Shown here: in pieces, positions 8,795 through 30,922 of the stretch
Layout: each line of letters begins with the position of its first letter
Numbering within the stretch: the stretch's first letter is position 1
Sequence record: OQ108497.1
DNA length: 64,000 nt
Reading direction: 5' to 3' (one strand)
Source of the DNA: Escherichia phage EC_OE_11
Made by a program: the position numbers and the translations under genes
Notes under the pieces: generated by a model
The model's input: only the letters and a program-made list of their open reading frames with translations
Told to the model about the DNA's origin: nothing
Database searches by the model: none

Positions 8795-8820
8795 AAAGCC
8801 CCTTCGGGGGCTTATTATTT
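8795..8820 (+). terminator. rho-independent terminator-like hairpin
   Basis: AGCCCC-TTCG-GGGGCT followed by TATTATTT. Confidence 0.5.
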
Positions 8821-8831
8821 AAGGAGATTAA

Positions 8832-11660
8832 ATGTATCCTATTCCTTTATTTATGTCAACAACATCAGCTTCAGGAGTAACAGCTACATCTATAACCACT
8901 GCCTCTATTGGTATTGCAATAGTTGGTAGTAAAAAACAACTGACATACACAGTTTCACCGGAAGATGGTGCGTTATTTGATATAGCTTTTTCATCTTCAG
9001 ATAATACCAAAATGGTTATAGATAATAGTGGTATGATGGAGTTTGTTGCTGAAGGTGGTTTTGATGCAATAATGACAGCTAAAAATAATTTAGGTGCTGT
9101 CTTAACTGATCAATCTGGTGGTTATGCTTCAGAATTAAGTGTGTACACTGAAAGTCTATCTGCTATGGATGTAGGCACTACTCAACAGTTGGTTGCTACA
9201 ATCAATCCAGAAGGTGCTAAAGACCTTCCAGATATGGTAATTACGTACACCACAACAGATCCAGAAGTAGCTACTGTAAGCCCTACAGGATTAATAACTG
9301 CTCTTAAAGATGGTAATTGCCGTATAGGTTGTACTGCAACGTATCAAGGAACAGTTGTGGCCTCTGATAGTTCTTATTTAGGTGTTAATGCTATTCCTGT
9401 TATTTCTAATGTAACAGCCGTGGCAAACAGCTATGGAGACGTTCGTGTTGCTTGGGATGTAGCTGATCCGCTAGATGGTGATACTTATACTGTAGAAGTG
9501 TTAGATTTAAGTAATAACAGTGTTCAGTGGACTACAACAACCACGAATACTCATGCTTACTTTGATATCTCTGACTCTATTCCTCTTTATGGGTTTGCTC
9601 CAACATACCTTAAAATTAGCGTTAAGAGCACCAAAGCAGCACCTGTTATCTTTAATAACTCAATAGCTACAGATGATTCGTTCATTAAAGAAGTTATTGT
9701 CTTTGCTGGACAAGATAACGTAAATGCGCACTTTACAGAACTATCTGGTGCAAATAAAGCAGCAATGAGTAGCACAACAGCCCGTAATGCATATGCTACG
9801 CAACGTGGTTTAGCAAATGCTGAAGTTCTTCCGTTAAATACAGCTTCTGGATCATCAGCAGCAGATAAATATGCTGACGATAAAGCTGGAACAGGTACAC
9901 CAGACAACTACTGGTATGATCTGGATAACACAGCAGATGGGCCATGCTTAACTAATTTTATCACTAAAGTCACACCTTATGCAAGTAAGGTTAAAGCAAT
10001 TATTTGGGGACAAGGTGAAAATGATGCTGTATCAGCATCTTCAACTGTTGCAGGTAGATACAGTAACACTACACGTTACCATGATGCTACAATAGCTATC
10101 TTTGATAAGATGCGTACAATAGTTCCTGCTTCTCAAGCAAAAATTGTTTGGCAGATCCTAGGACGTTCTTATTTATATGGTGTAGAAGTTAATGGTGTGG
10201 ATTGGCAGAAATACAGAAATGTACAAAGAGCCATCTCTACGGCACGTGATGATGTTATCATTGGTTCTTGGGTAGATGGTGCTGAACGTTACAGTGGCTA
10301 TGTTTATGAAGAAGGTATTGATGGTCGTATCCATTATGTTTCTTCTGTATACCAGACAGCAGCTACAAAACTTGCTAAATCAGCAGCAGACGGTACAGAC
10401 CTAACATCAACGTCACCTGTTTGGGTTGATATGGCTGTTCCAACTGGAGCAACAGCTACTTCCCAACCTAATCAAGATACAATTTTAGCATGGGATGCTC
10501 AAGGCTATAGTAAACACTACTTCCGTAATATTAACGTCTTAACAGCATCTGTATTAACTGAACAAACACTTAATACGAACAGCTATACGTTTACCTATGC
10601 AGATCAAGTAGCACAATATGGTTTTGCAGCAGGAACTACTATATTTGATGTTGCATATTATGACGAAGCAAATGATGTGTTATCTCCTTTAGTACGTTTT
10701 AATGTTAACGTTACAGCAGGAACCGAAGAAGATAAACCTGTCGTGATGGACTATGATTTGACGCAAGAAACTCTTCCATCAGATGTGCGCGTAAACAGGA
10801 GCAACCATTATGCTAGGGCTTCTGGAGATATCCTTGTACCGACAGAGGTTTCTGCTCCTGTAGCACCTTTAGAATATATTGGTACAACGCCACAAGGTAG
10901 ACGTGTTGTAGCAGCCAACCGTACATATATCTTTGTCAACAATAACTTGACAACAGCTTCCCCGTGGTTGAAGACGAACTTGACAGTTACAGCATCAACA
11001 ATCAACTCTCCGGTTGGAACTACAGCTAACACTTACAAGTTAACACCTTCTACAACTTCAGGACAACATATTTTATCAGCAGTGAATACAGCTTCTGATA
11101 TTACAGCAGGTAGGCAATGGGCTGCATCTGTATTCTTGAAGCCAGACGGGATCACTAAAGTGAAGCTCAAATTGACTTCAGGAGATGAGGTTAACGAAGG
11201 GACTTATGATCTTGAAGCTGGAACATTTACAGGCACAGATGCAAATATGATCGACATGGGGAATGGTTGGTATCGTGTAATCTTACATAAAGTAACGGTT
11301 GCTAAACAAGCCTCTATGACTTATGAGATTATAGCTTTGAATGCCAGTGGATCAGACACTTTTGCAGGAGATGGCACTGGAGGTCTTATTGCTTGGGTTC
11401 CACAACTTGAAATGGGCGATATGACAAACCCAGTTTGGGCGGGGACACCATTTGTTTGTACTTATGCACGAGATACAGATAGTGCTGCCACCTTCACTAT
11501 TCCTAAGAACGGACACACTGGCGTGGATATTTACCACACAGATGGAACTGTGCAAAGAGAGATTTTCACGGGCACAGCTACTACCTGGATGTTATCATTC
11601 AACGCCGCAAGTGCAGATTGGGGATCGAAATTCATCTCTGGTTTGAAATATTACGACTAA
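8832..11660 (+). CDS. tail fibre/tailspike protein with Ig-like (Big_2-like) and SGNH/esterase-like domains
   Basis: 942 aa; AAGGAG RBS; Big_2-like segment (VITYTTTDPEVATVSPTGLITALKDGNCRIGCTATYQG); central region with esterase-like motifs (VIVFAGQDNVNAHF ... IWGQGENDA). Confidence 0.45.
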   Translation: MYPIPLFMSTTSASGVTATSITTASIGIAIVGSKKQLTYTVSPEDGALFDIAFSSSDNTKMVIDNSGMMEFVAEGGFDAIMTAKNNLGAVLTDQSGGYASELSVYTESLSAMDVGTTQQLVATINPEGAKDLPDMVITYTTTDPEVATVSPTGLITALKDGNCRIGCTATYQGTVVASDSSYLGVNAIPVISNVTAVANSYGDVRVAWDVADPLDGDTYTVEVLDLSNNSVQWTTTTTNTHAYFDISDSIPLYGFAPTYLKISVKSTKAAPVIFNNSIATDDSFIKEVIVFAGQDNVNAHFTELSGANKAAMSSTTARNAYATQRGLANAEVLPLNTASGSSAADKYADDKAGTGTPDNYWYDLDNTADGPCLTNFITKVTPYASKVKAIIWGQGENDAVSASSTVAGRYSNTTRYHDATIAIFDKMRTIVPASQAKIVWQILGRSYLYGVEVNGVDWQKYRNVQRAISTARDDVIIGSWVDGAERYSGYVYEEGIDGRIHYVSSVYQTAATKLAKSAADGTDLTSTSPVWVDMAVPTGATATSQPNQDTILAWDAQGYSKHYFRNINVLTASVLTEQTLNTNSYTFTYADQVAQYGFAAGTTIFDVAYYDEANDVLSPLVRFNVNVTAGTEEDKPVVMDYDLTQETLPSDVRVNRSNHYARASGDILVPTEVSAPVAPLEYIGTTPQGRRVVAANRTYIFVNNNLTTASPWLKTNLTVTASTINSPVGTTANTYKLTPSTTSGQHILSAVNTASDITAGRQWAASVFLKPDGITKVKLKLTSGDEVNEGTYDLEAGTFTGTDANMIDMGNGWYRVILHKVTVAKQASMTYEIIALNASGSDTFAGDGTGGLIAWVPQLEMGDMTNPVWAGTPFVCTYARDTDSAATFTIPKNGHTGVDIYHTDGTVQREIFTGTATTWMLSFNAASADWGSKFISGLKYYD

Positions 11661-11663
11661 TAA

Positions 11664-11690
11664 AAAAGGAGCCATTAGGCTCCTTTTCTT
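11664..11690. terminator. bidirectional terminator hairpin between convergent genes
   Basis: AAAAGGAGCC-ATTA-GGCTCCTTTT, A-run and T-run on both sides; between plus gene stop 11660 and minus gene stop 11696. Confidence 0.6.
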
Positions 11691-11695
11691 TTATC

Positions 11696-12127
11696 TTAAT
11701 CAGTGAAAATTACGCTTACATCTTCTTTAGAAAAGAGTTTATGATCTTCACCTTTTGTCTCAAGAGTTTCATACAGGTTAAGAAGTTCTGAAACATCTTT
11801 CTCTACCAGTTTCTTCAATGTTGCAATTTTCTGTTTGCGATTCTTAATACGTTCAGCTACAACCTTACGTTGGTATCCGGCAGTACGATAACCGGAGAAA
11901 GTTACACCAGTGAGACTTGCAGTTACAGGATCGTAATGACGTTCAATCTGAAATTTATTAAAAGGTACAGCGTCATCACGAATAATCTTACCGCCATTAC
12001 TTACTTGACGAAGACCAGTAACTTGTTCCAGTCGTGCCATAGAAATCTTTGGAGACAGACCAGAGTCCAAGTTCATACCGTTGTTAATCAGTGCCTTCAG
12101 GGTGATTTTGCTGTTCAGTGTACTCAT
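11696..12127 (-). CDS. hypothetical protein co-transcribed with DNA methyltransferase
   Basis: 143 aa; start overlaps upstream MTase gene (alternative ATG about 12076); no recognisable motif. Confidence 0.35.
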   Translation of the reverse strand: MSTLNSKITLKALINNGMNLDSGLSPKISMARLEQVTGLRQVSNGGKIIRDDAVPFNKFQIERHYDPVTASLTGVTFSGYRTAGYQRKVVAERIKNRKQKIATLKKLVEKDVSELLNLYETLETKGEDHKLFSKEDVSVIFTD

Positions 12128-12815
12128 TTAGTCGTTCCTCCGCTTGCTTAAAAATATTTACATCGGCTTCACAGCCTAAGTATTCTCTACCTGTTAAAAG
12201 TGCCGCAACTTGTGTTGTTGCACTTCCAGAGAAGAAGTCTAAGACTACATCTCCTTCGTTGGTGTGTATATTAATAAGGTCACAAAACAAAGTCAAGTGT
12301 TTTTGTGTTGGATGAAAACGATCTGCTCCTTGATAGATAGGATACTCAAACACACCCTTATGGTAGGAAGCATTGAAGGTTGGCTTCGAACCTTTAACAC
12401 AAACAATAGCCATCTCTTTAGCGTTACTAAGGTAGTTAACACCACTGTTGATGGGTACAGGGTTGGTTTTAATCCATTCAATAGTACGGAACATACGAAA
12501 ACCAAGCGGTTCAAGGATTTCACGTAGTTCCTGGATCTTCCAGATATCATACCAAACTATGCAAGTACCACCTTTTCTAAGCACCCTATAGGCTTCTTTG
12601 AATACTTCTTTAAAGTAAGGAATATCTACAACATCCCAGTCACCAAAGTTGTAAGATACACGGAATCTATCCGTATCTTTTCCAGTAGGCTCTCCAGATT
12701 GAAAATTTGTGTCACGAGAAATAGCATATGGTGGGTCAGTAAGAATCAAATCTACACTGTTGCTTTCGAGGGTTTGCAGGTAGTTTAATGCGGTGTTGTT
12801 TACAAATTCGCTCAT
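12084..12815 (-). CDS. DNA methyltransferase (beta-class, N6-adenine or N4-cytosine)
   Basis: 243 aa; GAAGGAG RBS; catalytic DPPY motif (ILTDPPYAI) precedes AdoMet-binding FFSGSATT, the circularly permuted beta-class order. Confidence 0.85.
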   Translation of the reverse strand: MSEFVNNTALNYLQTLESNSVDLILTDPPYAISRDTNFQSGEPTGKDTDRFRVSYNFGDWDVVDIPYFKEVFKEAYRVLRKGGTCIVWYDIWKIQELREILEPLGFRMFRTIEWIKTNPVPINSGVNYLSNAKEMAIVCVKGSKPTFNASYHKGVFEYPIYQGADRFHPTQKHLTLFCDLINIHTNEGDVVLDFFSGSATTQVAALLTGREYLGCEADVNIFKQAEERLNEYTEQQNHPEGTD

Positions 12816-12830
12816 TATATCTCCTTCAAA

Positions 12831-12853
12831 GAAAAGGAGCCGTTAGGCTCCTT
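12831..12853 (-). terminator. terminator-like hairpin (near-identical copy of hairpin at 11664)
   Basis: GGAGCC-GTTA-GGCTCC with flanking A/T runs; lies between SSB-like stop and MTase start. Confidence 0.5.
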
Positions 12854-12875
12854 ATATTCACACAATATTTAATTA

Positions 12876-13823
12876 TTAGAAACAGTGCAGGAAGTTTCGA
12901 CCATATTGCAAACCAATAGGAGCAAATGGGATATCATCATCGAAATCTTGAACAACAGGTTCTGGTTCTTTCGGTGCTGGCTCTTTCTTCTCTACTTTCT
13001 TAGTTTCTTTCTTAACTTCTTGTACTGGGGTAGACATTCCACGGATAGCAGCAGCTACTTTATCAGACAAAGCAAGAACTTCACGAGCAGCTTCAATAAT
13101 CTCTTCTGCCGTTACAGTTTTACCTGTATGATCACGACAAGCATTAAGAATTGCGTGTCCAACTGAAGCACCAAGATCATAATCAGTCACGTCAACGCCA
13201 CGATCTTTAGCAATTTCAGCTTTCAGAGTAACAGTTGCAGATTGTACCACACCAGCCAAATCGAAAGCATCACCTTTCACACCAGCACGTAGAAGCTCCA
13301 GAGCGCCGTTTACAGCGTGTCCTGTTTCAATCCCTACGGTATCACGTTTTTTGTAGTTAGGCTTGCTACCGTCATTATTAGATGGCTTATTTCCACCTTT
13401 TGAAGAAGATTGTGCTTGCTGAACACCTTCTGTTGAAAGAATAGTGATTTTACCTTTAGAGGAATTGTAGTATGTTTTGCCATTCCATTCGGAAGGTTTA
13501 ACATCCATAGTTAGTTCTACACCTTTTTCAATAGTAACCCACTTATCACCATCTTTAACTTGCAGGTTTTCATGTTCTGGGTGCAGTTTAACTTCACCTA
13601 GACTAACCCAAACGCCTTTATCCTCAGCACCAGCACCTTTCTCTTTAATAAGCAGAGATGCTTTGTGAGTTGATTCAATTTTCTTATCTGGCTGACCTGC
13701 AACCTTAATATAAGAGACTTTCATTTCATCAAACTTATCTAGTTTGACATATTCGACAATACCTTCAGCCCAGAATGCTTCTTTTTTAGTACGGCGGTCG
13801 ATTTCAGAATTAATTACTGGCAT
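12876..13823 (-). CDS. putative ssDNA-binding protein with E. coli SSB-like acidic tail motif
   Basis: 315 aa; contains DFDDDIPF (the E. coli SSB C-terminal tip) but followed by 17 more residues; Gly/Ser/Asn-rich linker; N-terminal beta-rich region. Confidence 0.4.
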   Translation of the reverse strand: MPVINSEIDRRTKKEAFWAEGIVEYVKLDKFDEMKVSYIKVAGQPDKKIESTHKASLLIKEKGAGAEDKGVWVSLGEVKLHPEHENLQVKDGDKWVTIEKGVELTMDVKPSEWNGKTYYNSSKGKITILSTEGVQQAQSSSKGGNKPSNNDGSKPNYKKRDTVGIETGHAVNGALELLRAGVKGDAFDLAGVVQSATVTLKAEIAKDRGVDVTDYDLGASVGHAILNACRDHTGKTVTAEEIIEAAREVLALSDKVAAAIRGMSTPVQEVKKETKKVEKKEPAPKEPEPVVQDFDDDIPFAPIGLQYGRNFLHCF

Positions 13824-13839
13824 AAATTCTCCTCTATAA

Positions 13840-14238
13840 TTACATTACTTTAACACAAAACTCTCGTAAAAGAGTAGCGTCAGTTTCTTCCAACAGGTAT
13901 TTACCAAGACCAATACCAAAGCCTATTTCACCACTTTCAAAATGGAGAATTTGTATCTTTTCTCCACCAAGATTAATTACTTTTGCTTTTCCAGGATTAT
14001 CCAAAACATCTCGTATTGTATCCTGTAGTAGCATAAGCTCACGTTTTGTGATAGTGGTTTCAGATATCTCTTTGTTTTCTACTCTCACTGTTAAACGATT
14101 GTATCCACCAAAGAGACATAGTATTTGAATAAAAAAGGTATTATCTTGAGGTTCAACATCTTTTTTGGTTAGCTCAAGACGATTAGTTTCTCTGCTGTAG
14201 AACGTCTCGACTAAGATTTTAGAACGATTATCTGTCAT
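13840..14238 (-). CDS. hypothetical protein
   Basis: 132 aa ORF in replication block. Confidence 0.3.
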   Translation of the reverse strand: MTDNRSKILVETFYSRETNRLELTKKDVEPQDNTFFIQILCLFGGYNRLTVRVENKEISETTITKRELMLLQDTIRDVLDNPGKAKVINLGGEKIQILHFESGEIGFGIGLGKYLLEETDATLLREFCVKVM

Positions 14239-14281
14239 TCAAGTCCTCATAATAACACATAATTATAATGTTTGTCAACAC

Positions 14282-14875
14282 TTAAATTTTAAATTCTTCG
14301 TTGTTAAATGAATCCAGTGTACGTACTTCCGGTTCTTTGGGAATGAATACGTCTTTTACAAAGCGGAACATAGGGAAACGTTCTGCCATTTTACGGACGT
14401 GTGCTTCTTTACCTGTGTATCGGTGATTAATAGTGCAAATATTAGTCTTCAATGCAAATTCAAAATCTGGATGATATACATAGTTTTGACCATCCCAGTA
14501 ACACAGGCAAATAGCTACATCAAAGTTCCATACGATTTCACTACGTACACCTTCTTCCATGATCATAAAGTTAAACTTAAGGTCTTTATAGTATGCTTCA
14601 AATACCCATTTCAAATGTGGTAGTTCGGCATAAGTGTGTTCTGTTTGCTTAGTAAGTTGTTTCACATTACGTGCACCAACACCCAACATTAAAAATTTCT
14701 CTACTAATACGAGTGTATTGTGGTTAGGCATACGCAAGTAAATGTCAATGTCTTGTGCAGGTTTCTCTAATCGCCAATCACGTACAGCGCCGCCAGCAAC
14801 AATTGCAAACGGATCTACCAGTTGGCACATACGTAATACTTCTAAAGCTCGTACTTTTTGATCTTCAATATTCAT
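14282..14875 (-). CDS. Pol-beta superfamily nucleotidyltransferase (CCA-adding/poly(A) polymerase head-domain-like)
   Basis: 197 aa; motif AIVAGGAVRDWRL ... DIDIYL resembles the GGxVRD ... DxD head-domain signature of tRNA nucleotidyltransferases. Confidence 0.45.
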   Translation of the reverse strand: MNIEDQKVRALEVLRMCQLVDPFAIVAGGAVRDWRLEKPAQDIDIYLRMPNHNTLVLVEKFLMLGVGARNVKQLTKQTEHTYAELPHLKWVFEAYYKDLKFNFMIMEEGVRSEIVWNFDVAICLCYWDGQNYVYHPDFEFALKTNICTINHRYTGKEAHVRKMAERFPMFRFVKDVFIPKEPEVRTLDSFNNEEFKI

Positions 14876-17659: not shown

Positions 17660-17678
17660 AAAGGGGCTTTCGCCCCTT
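17660..17678. terminator. GC hairpin between DNA polymerase and upstream gene
   Basis: GGGGC-TTTC-GCCCC palindromic stem-loop with T-rich plus-strand tail. Confidence 0.4.
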
Positions 17679-30888: not shown

Positions 30889-30904
30889 CAGATCACCTCA
30901 ACAA

Positions 30905-30922
30905 AGCCCCCGAAGGGGCTTA
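30905..30922 (-). terminator. GC hairpin downstream of TerC-like gene
   Basis: AGCCCC-CGAA-GGGGCT stem-loop. Confidence 0.4.

Follow-up and report, generated by a model that had tools for sequence, protein, structure and literature searches.

A 64,000-nucleotide (nt) stretch of Escherichia phage EC_OE_11 (OQ108497.1; hereafter the window, with positions counted from its first letter) carries on its minus strand two overlapping genes, a β-class DPPY DNA methyltransferase and a 143-amino acid (aa) partner, as an earlier reading of the same DNA (the original prediction) had described; they correspond to gp155 and gp154 of phage phi92. We propose, with a probability of about 0.7, that this cassette is a conserved operon derived from an NlaIII/IceA1-type (CATG) restriction-modification operon, gained and kept by the phage lineage, in which the methyltransferase is intact and the endonuclease has been reduced to the nuclease-less gp154. 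Because the two genes are linked and gp154 is apparently homologous to ICEA proteins, the cassette looks like an NlaIII/IceA1-type operon minus its nuclease half. Literature citing Xu et al. 2002 describes IceA1 as a functional CATG-specific isoschizomer of NlaIII. Judged from sequence, a restriction-endonuclease derivative that lacks its nuclease yet is conserved alongside a methylase in phages would be new; no earlier description was found in the literature searched. The window belongs to a virulent phi92-like myovirus (Justusliebigvirus, Stephanstirmvirinae). Over positions 10500 to 14500, the window shares 98.6% identity with Escherichia phage JohannJBalmer (Bas62), and matches were found in 91 phage records.

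Homology of gp154 to IceA1/R.NlaIII-Type Endonucleases

Searches of gp154 against Pfam, NCBIfam, and PADLOC returned no match, and an exhaustive profile search through 1.84 billion representative proteins turned up no more than 32 relatives. A NUMOD4 match of one gp154-family member (E 0.011) was dismissed as noise. Comparison by hhalign of the gp154-family alignment (A2) with an ICEA alignment (A3) gave a probability of 94.7% and an E value of 6.4e-8 over 62 columns, pairing gp154 residues 19 to 82 with ICEA residues 62 to 124 and revealing a common motif of the form sNGxx[IW][IA]RxD. At 12 bits or more, a hidden Markov model of the gp154 family recognized 98 of 120 ICEA proteins, compared with 1 of 1200 shuffled and 0 of 120 reversed sequences. 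AlphaFold modeling of gp154 reached a predicted local distance difference test score (pLDDT) of 53 with a 4-sequence alignment and 94.9 with a 29-sequence alignment; in the latter model, residues 83 to 125 continue as a 43-residue helix. Foldseek matched the gp154 model to a viral "ICEA1" model in BFVD with a probability of 0.96 and found nothing significant in the PDB; winged-helix DNA-binding proteins (TFE-alpha, the CodY C-terminal domain, CtsR, and the MarR family) formed the comparison group for the N-terminal domain. By these profile and model comparisons, the N-terminal domain of gp154 is homologous to the noncatalytic part of the PF05315 IceA1/R.NlaIII-type endonucleases.

The ICEA invariants D158, H159, N188, H194, C195, C198, C226, and C229 all fall after the aligned region and have no counterpart in gp154, which contains no Cys, two His, and no HNH motif. 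Reduced to the N-terminal noncatalytic domain and a long helix, gp154 would thus be unable to cut DNA. The original prediction had offered a toxin as one possible role of the partner; this is unlikely for a protein with neither a nuclease motif nor a cysteine, and a toxin or active endonuclease was rejected since no catalytic motif is present. A DNA mimic or charge-based anti-restriction protein was rejected because gp154 is basic (pI 9.55). A split endonuclease was also rejected: an HNH gene found beside the gp154 homologue of Pseudoalteromonas phage J2-1 shows no relationship to the HNH half of ICEA (hhalign probability 0.3%). Purifying selection within the genus rules out a dead remnant: six comparisons summed to synonymous/nonsynonymous counts of 45/5 for gp154 and 56/3 for the methyltransferase. 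The gp154 Shine-Dalgarno sequence GGAGG (12137–12141) sits inside the methyltransferase gene, and translational coupling of gp154 to the methyltransferase appears likely. Some database proteins of 336 to 394 aa (P0188, P0250) bear both PF05315 (ICEA) and PF01555 domains and would be fused endonuclease-methyltransferases of an NlaIII/IceA1-type system.

A Methyltransferase With CATG as Its Likely Target

The methyltransferase matches PF01555 with an E value of 1.9e-30 and 106.9 bits (cutoff 26.7) over profile positions 1 to 221 of 221, and its DPPY (aa 27–30; 12726–12737) and FSGSATT (aa 195–201; 12213–12233) motifs stand in the β-class order. Its best relative of solved structure is the Helicobacter pylori DpnA-like protein 5hek (232–240 aa, E 1.1e-28), followed by CcrM. 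Sequence records label the enzyme "Dam-like," "type III methylation subunit," or "site-specific methylase"; no data behind these labels, and no methylome or functional study of phi92 gp154 or gp155, were found in the literature. Despite the "Dam-like" label, the enzyme is probably not GATC-specific. Its subfamily is large in metagenomes (4702 matches at E <= 1e-20), and among 50,697 cultured-phage records it is found only in Justusliebigvirus and three giant uncultured phages.

The neighbors of its homologues, described below, together with site depletion suggest CATG as the likely target of the methyltransferase. The JohannJBalmer genome contains 276 CATG sites, compared with 518 expected (ratio 0.53), which makes CATG its third most depleted palindromic tetramer. 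The observed/expected ratio is 0.24 in the divergent metagenomic relatives L009 and L010, where CATG is the most depleted of 16 tetramers, 0.45 in six unrelated gp154-carrying loci taken together (second most depleted), and 0.62 to 0.92 in comparators without gp154; for carriers versus noncarriers, in a small and non-independent sample, a one-sided Mann-Whitney test gave p = 0.0055. J2-1, with no CATG in 58 kb (125 expected), is an extreme case of site avoidance. The first 50 kb of J2-1 (L111) also contains no CCGG (35 expected). In JohannJBalmer and the window, GGCC (0.36) and CCGG (0.52) are as depleted as CATG or more so, and GATC stands at 1.02.

Protection of phage DNA from restriction by the methyltransferase is plausible. 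To our knowledge, CATG is recognized by none of the restriction-modification systems to which the BASEL phages were exposed. In the BASEL study, phi92-like phages proved "exceptionally susceptible" to the restriction-modification systems tested, a result that is therefore neutral on CATG-specific protection. A purely protective methylase does not explain why carriers would both methylate and avoid CATG, nor why the CATG-free J2-1 keeps gp154.

The Gene Pair in Other Phages and in Bacteria

A gp154-family gene lies directly downstream of a PF01555 methyltransferase gene of 232 to 260 aa in L009, L010, L016, L017/L018, L019, L020, L021/L022, and L026, and the two genes overlap by 29 to 44 nt in seven of the eight contexts tabulated. 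These contigs place the pair in unrelated surroundings. A predicted RNase H-like gene precedes it and NT5C, Thy1, and RNR genes follow it in L016 and L017/L018; it stands between PhoH and ClpP in L019, after ThyA and DHFR in L020 and L026, and after a T7 gp5.9-like gene and DUF3310 in L021/L022. L023 is uninformative on linkage because its upstream gene is cut by the contig end. Compared pairwise across eight contexts (L026 left out), the methyltransferases are 51 to 82% identical and the gp154-family partners only 26 to 66%. The one exception to adjacency is J2-1, which encodes a 33%-identical gp154 homologue without a neighboring methyltransferase; no methyltransferase of the window type was detected in the 58 kb examined. 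The original prediction had also suggested a specificity factor, and the J2-1 homologue weakens that suggestion. Upstream of the pair, L020 has a near-perfect sigma-70 promoter (TTGACT-17 nt-TATAAT, within 2226–2315) directly before the methyltransferase gene, and a stem-loop lies 8 to 20 nt before the methyltransferase ribosome-binding site in five of eight contexts compared.

The association extends to full endonuclease genes. Methyltransferases 55 to 57% identical to the window enzyme adjoin PF05315 genes in the phage-like L027 and the bacterial L029/L030. Among species-representative genomes, a window-type methyltransferase is present at 37 of 80 ICEA loci, in 36 cases at 45 to 56% identity and in one (L086) as a 46-residue partial match only. 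In 35 of the 37 it is encoded directly upstream on the same strand, the order in which the methyltransferase precedes gp154. Cluster look-ups of the bacterial methyltransferase or ICEA proteins gave no informative names.

Organization of the Locus and Its Flanking Hairpins

Along the minus strand, the order is SSB-like gene, hairpin 2, methyltransferase, gp154, and hairpin 1 (Table 1).

Table 1. Features of the methyltransferase/gp154 locus in the window
Feature	Position	Strand	Remarks
Lateral tail-fibre gene, 942 aa	8832..11660	+	Convergent with the cassette; stop 3 nt before hairpin 1
Hairpin 1	11664–11687	both	AAAAGGAGCC-ATTA-GGCTCCTTTT; 10-bp stem, 4-nt loop, T run on either strand
gp154 homologue, 143 aa, pI 9.55	11696..12127	−	phrog_20244; residues 19–82 domain, 83–125 helix
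Overlap of methyltransferase 3' and gp154 5' ends, 44 nt	12084..12127	−	From the open reading frame coordinates
Methyltransferase, 243 aa, β-class N6/N4 (phi92 gp155)	12084..12815	−	PF01555
Methyltransferase Shine-Dalgarno sequence AGGAG	12821..12825	−	5 nt before ATG, 8 nt after hairpin 2; annotated in phi92
Hairpin 2	12834–12853	−	AAGGAGCC-GTTA-GGCTCCTT; 8-bp stem, 4-nt loop, then TTTTCTTT
HNH homing-endonuclease remnant, MVETSCTVSNN*, 11 codons	12873..12904	−	Gene intact here in nieznany, ZCKP1, and rV5
SSB-like gene, 315 aa (phi92 gp156)	12876..13823	−	Tip DFDDDIPF at 12924–12947

The two near-identical hairpins on which the original prediction had remarked are both present: the window contains two copies, and no more, of the pattern AAGGAGCCNNNNGGCTCCTT (0.01 expected), and the sequence common to both hairpins is confined to the 22-nt core AAGGAGCCTAAYGGCTCCTTTT, with flanks lacking homology. 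In JohannJBalmer, whose complete genome measures 144.8 kb, the GGAGCC/GGCTCC stem has no copies beyond these two, and we therefore rejected the idea that it is a genome-wide common terminator type. The accompanying remark that other terminators have different stems held for the uniqueness of this stem but not for its contrast with the others, which are reused too: JohannJBalmer contains AAGGGGC-tttc-GCCCCTT three times, AAGCCCC four times, and AAACCCGC-ttcg twice. Since other terminator stems recur in the genome, a repeated stem alone is no mark of a cassette. The hairpin AAGCCCC-TTCG-GGGGCTT at 8796–8813 is the exact reverse complement of that at 30904–30921, and a further reused stem lies at 17661–17678.

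Predicted RNA stabilities of the two hairpins range from -13 to -18 kcal/mol with z-scores of -2.7 to -5.3, and both score as intrinsic terminators in a scan for a G+C-rich stem-loop with a U-tract. In phage Paula they are annotated as terminators, hairpin 1 on both strands. Hairpin 1 is predicted to be a bidirectional intrinsic terminator common to the tail-fibre gene on the plus strand and the methyltransferase/gp154 operon on the minus strand, and hairpin 2, lying between the SSB-like gene and the methyltransferase, is predicted to act as a terminator or attenuator. We found no transcriptome from any phi92-like phage. Among near-identical genomes (L011, L012, L024, L025), the loop of hairpin 1 (11674–11677) varies and is seen in either orientation, reading ATTA or TAAT and AATA or TATT; its stem is constant across these variants, and the GTTA loop of hairpin 2 is invariant. 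The variation looks like flip-flop inversion of a perfect palindrome.

History of the Cassette

All 55 of 55 Justusliebigvirus records with the SSB-like gene (at least 90% identity) carry gp154 (at least 98.6%) and the methyltransferase (at least 99%). Phapecoctavirus, the sister genus (phAPEC8, nieznany, ZCKP1), has the same neighbors, the tail-fibre and SSB-like genes, around a slot without the cassette. The slot of phAPEC8 consists of the tail gene, a single hairpin AAAAAGGGAACC-CGCAAA-GGTTCCCTTTT, 25 nt, and the SSB-like gene ending DFDDDIPF*; this hairpin is orthologous to hairpin 1 and has a different stem (GGGAACC). A free-standing HNH endonuclease gene occupies the slot in nieznany and ZCKP1, and in the outgroup rV5 the SSB-like gene is followed by an HNH gene without the cassette. 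Comparison of genomes for a cassette lying exactly between the hairpins, as the original prediction had suggested, thus revealed no polymorphism within the genus and absence from phAPEC8, nieznany, and ZCKP1.

The divergent metagenomic relatives L009 (a 151.5-kb contig) and L010 have the cassette at the same place. In L009 the hairpins differ from each other, AAGGGGC-TTCG-GCCCCTT before the methyltransferase and AAAGGGAGCCTC-TTGC-GAGGTTCCCTTT after gp154. In L010 the hairpin after gp154, AAAGGGAACCTC-GAAA-GAGGCTCCCTTT, is similar to the lone hairpin of phAPEC8 and differs from the L010 upstream hairpin, and a 35-nt stretch of hairpin 2 and its leader is identical to that of the window. The tail-side hairpins of both relatives match the phAPEC8 stem GGGAACC. 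Window and L009 are 82% identical in DNA polymerase and 80% in methyltransferase (79 to 80% for the methyltransferases of L009/L010), and the phAPEC8 DNA polymerase is 79% identical to that of the window and 74% to that of L009. A scan of IMG/VR returned only two near-identical loci.

The simplest reading is that the cassette was gained once, long ago, by an ancestor shared by Justusliebigvirus, L009, and L010, and then descended vertically, with the tail-side hairpin having come to match hairpin 2 within Justusliebigvirus by conversion or a few compensatory changes. Because the hairpins flanking the L009 and L010 cassettes differ from each other, the near-identity in the window would be a derived, genus-level state and not an insertion scar, and the notion that the hairpin pair marks the boundaries of an insertion is unsupported. 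An acquired cassette survives in the sense of a mobile unit, with an empty slot in the sister genus and the same pair in unrelated phages, but the acquisition is old and fixed in 55 of 55 genomes. Its description as moron-like fared similarly. The cassette is present or absent between collinear neighbors and is followed by a terminator-like hairpin, hairpin 1, which it shares with the tail-fibre gene. Hairpin 2 and the methyltransferase ATG are only 18 nt apart, too little for a promoter before the ribosome-binding site, and the vicinity yielded no convincing promoter belonging to the cassette; the sole consensus match (12900–12872, 9 of 12 positions) lies upstream of hairpin 2, and shuffled sequence produces such matches at least as often. 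With neither room for a promoter nor a convincing match to one, "moron-like" holds only as insertion between conserved neighbors.

Two other histories were weighed against an old single gain. That the cassette is a recent moron, its near-identical hairpins being insertion scars or a duplicated target, would fit a stem unique to the two boundaries genome-wide, a sister genus with exactly one hairpin and no cassette, and a different insert, the HNH gene, in the same slot of nieznany and ZCKP1. We give this history very little credence, since the cassette is fixed throughout the genus under strong purifying selection, its own promoter was not found, other terminator stems are also repeated in the genome, and the L009 and L010 cassettes lie between unlike hairpins, L010 keeping hairpin 2 next to a phAPEC8-like tail-side hairpin. 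It is also unlikely, if less so, that the cassette is ancestral to the Stephanstirmvirinae and that Phapecoctavirus lost it by recombination between directly repeated hairpins, leaving one behind. A deletion could plausibly have used the direct repeats of 22 nt, which lie 1.17 kb apart; phAPEC8 has just one hairpin with these neighbors on either side, and three lineages bear the cassette compared with one that does not. However, the cassette is missing from the outgroup rV5, where SSB-like and HNH genes are present, and GGGAACC, the phAPEC8 stem, corresponds to the tail-side hairpin in L010 and L009 and not to hairpin 2. L009 is moreover nearer to the window than to phAPEC8 (DNA polymerase 82% versus 74%), so one gain suffices. 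Phapecoctavirus also has a different, Dam-like methyltransferase elsewhere, absent from JohannJBalmer; in phAPEC8 this gene (gp078; L003 11287–12081) directly follows the DNA polymerase gene. The methylases of the two sister genera thus differ both in kind and in location.

Remnants in the Slot and Neighboring Sequence

The tip of the SSB-like protein is followed by a 15-aa extension, APIGLQYGRNFLHCF (12879–12923), and the same extension is present wherever an HNH gene overlaps the 3' end of the SSB-like gene (nieznany, ZCKP1, rV5). In L010 the HNH gene persists without a start codon. On this comparison, the extension and the short open reading frame in the window are leftovers of a former overlap with the HNH gene, the extension having been kept though the HNH gene was deleted. 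Partner proteins of Escherichia coli SSB bind its free C-terminal Phe, and the 15-aa extension may alter partner binding.

On the other side of the cassette, the 3' part of the tail-fibre gene is a mosaic among relatives with a recombination breakpoint at hairpin 1; the alignment of many Justusliebigvirus genomes to the window begins only at 11647 or 11663 and then runs rightwards. A 38-nt segment at 11658–11695 (TAATAAAAAAGGAGCC-loop-GGCTCCTTTTCTTTTAT) is about 95% identical to L005 3001–3038 and to about 60 Drexlerviridae records. These matches are the tail-fibre/SSB junction of unrelated T1-like phages (Tlsvirus Sazh, Citrobacter CF1, and Klebsiella K50 phages), which likewise lies between convergent tail-fibre and SSB genes; either shared ancestry of the junction or convergence could account for the likeness. 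Four records named "Campylobacter phage" with Campylobacter jejuni as host (MG065639, MG065645, MG065656, MG065689) share about 98% identity with these E. coli phages throughout the region and are probably mislabeled or contaminants.

Origin of the Operon and Possible Roles of gp154

In the course of events that we propose, an ancestral operon with methylase first and endonuclease second would have had its endonuclease cut down to the N-terminal domain fused to a long helix. The operon would have entered the ancestor of Justusliebigvirus and its closest relatives and landed beside the SSB-like gene, then still accompanied by a homing HNH gene since deleted, with the bidirectional terminator of the tail-fibre gene on its other side, and would have been kept from then on; the hairpins would have become near-identical only within Justusliebigvirus. 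Hairpin 1 would end both convergent transcription units, and hairpin 2 would lower read-through from the SSB-like gene into the methyltransferase, a gene presumably needing less expression. The methyltransferase would make N6-methyladenine in CATG on phage DNA. gp154, made by coupled translation, would be a basic, probably dimeric DNA-binding protein that keeps the site-reading or partner-binding domain of the endonuclease.

Several points weigh against this origin. The Pfam ICEA model (PF05315) matched none of seven gp154-family members even at E <= 10, when two control ICEA proteins matched it at 6.7e-21 and 3.9e-28. Other IceA loci pair with other methyltransferases, including the C5 type, and the proposed CATG specificity depends on 45 to 57% identity to methyltransferases encoded beside IceA-family genes and on an assumed iso-specificity of the endonuclease family. 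CATG is moderately depleted also in relatives without the cassette (0.62 to 0.70, in a small and non-independent set), and the gp154-carrying L021 is without CATG depletion. Termination at the hairpins is a prediction, and the preference for gain over loss in Phapecoctavirus is provisional.

As to what gp154 does, we tentatively favor recognition of unmethylated CATG, with gp154 acting either on non-self DNA or as a regulator, a role that we rate as possible and short of probable. In a narrower and rather unlikely form, gp154 would be a nuclease-less CATG reader that, together with CATG methylation or removal, tells own DNA from that of host or competitor. If true, this would place restriction-modification logic in the service of the phage, the reader blocking non-self DNA or recruiting factors to it, and would account for the remnant being kept with the methyltransferase, for CATG avoidance, and for the CATG-free J2-1 keeping the reader without the methylase. 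An anti-restriction factor that poisons host NlaIII/IceA-type enzymes through mixed dimers or site occupation would draw on the same homology to the noncatalytic domain of the endonuclease, and gp154 does co-occur with two other apparent anti-CATG measures, methylation and site avoidance. We regard it as doubtful: dimerization through the shared domain is an assumption, J2-1, with its CATG-free 58 kb, would not need such a factor yet keeps the gene, and we know of no IceA-type system in the usual E. coli hosts, which counts against this role. Still less probable is that gp154 only serves the methyltransferase, as an accessory or specificity subunit or as a controller, and has no independent function. 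Strict adjacency and overlaps of 29 to 44 nt do suggest coupled expression and a fixed stoichiometry, but J2-1 keeps its homologue with no adjacent methyltransferase and none of the window type in the 58 kb examined, the similar-sized 5hek, the closest solved relative, was deposited as a methyltransferase alone, and the partner evolves much faster than the methyltransferase.

Derivation from an NlaIII/IceA1-type operon gives a lead on the function of phrog_20244, the family of gp154, to which no function is assigned, predicts a specific site, CATG, for a methylase otherwise labeled "Dam-like" or "type III," and may explain CATG avoidance. These phages are available in the public BASEL collection, which makes the predictions directly testable.

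Comparison With Known Systems

The closest parallel is with the NlaIII and IceA1-HpyIM type II systems. The window methyltransferase is 45 to 57% identical to those encoded upstream of full-length ICEA in the same gene order, gp154 residues 19 to 82 appear homologous to ICEA 62 to 124, and CATG is depleted in carriers. Unlike those systems, gp154 lacks the whole HNH/zinc catalytic half and has a long helix instead, the two genes overlap and sit in virulent phages, and CATG specificity is here a deduction. Like the orphan methyltransferases of phages (T4, T1, and P1 Dam), the window enzyme is phage-encoded, has no active cognate endonuclease, and is presumed protective; in contrast to the T4, T1, and P1 enzymes it is of the β class. 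Such orphans are usually seen as lone survivors of restriction-modification systems, whereas here the noncatalytic domain of the endonuclease would survive as a small protein, a remnant under selection that travels with the methyltransferase across unrelated phages. Lambdoid morons resemble the cassette in being present or absent between conserved neighbors, here in sister genera, and in having a terminator-like hairpin on either side, but the cassette has no detected promoter of its own, belongs to a virulent phage, is old and genus-wide, and appears to consist of two genes of common origin. The H. pylori DpnA-like enzymes (5hek/5hfj) and CcrM have the same motif order, and 5hek matches over its full length and is of the same size; identity to them is low, and their recognition sites are not transferable to the window methyltransferase.

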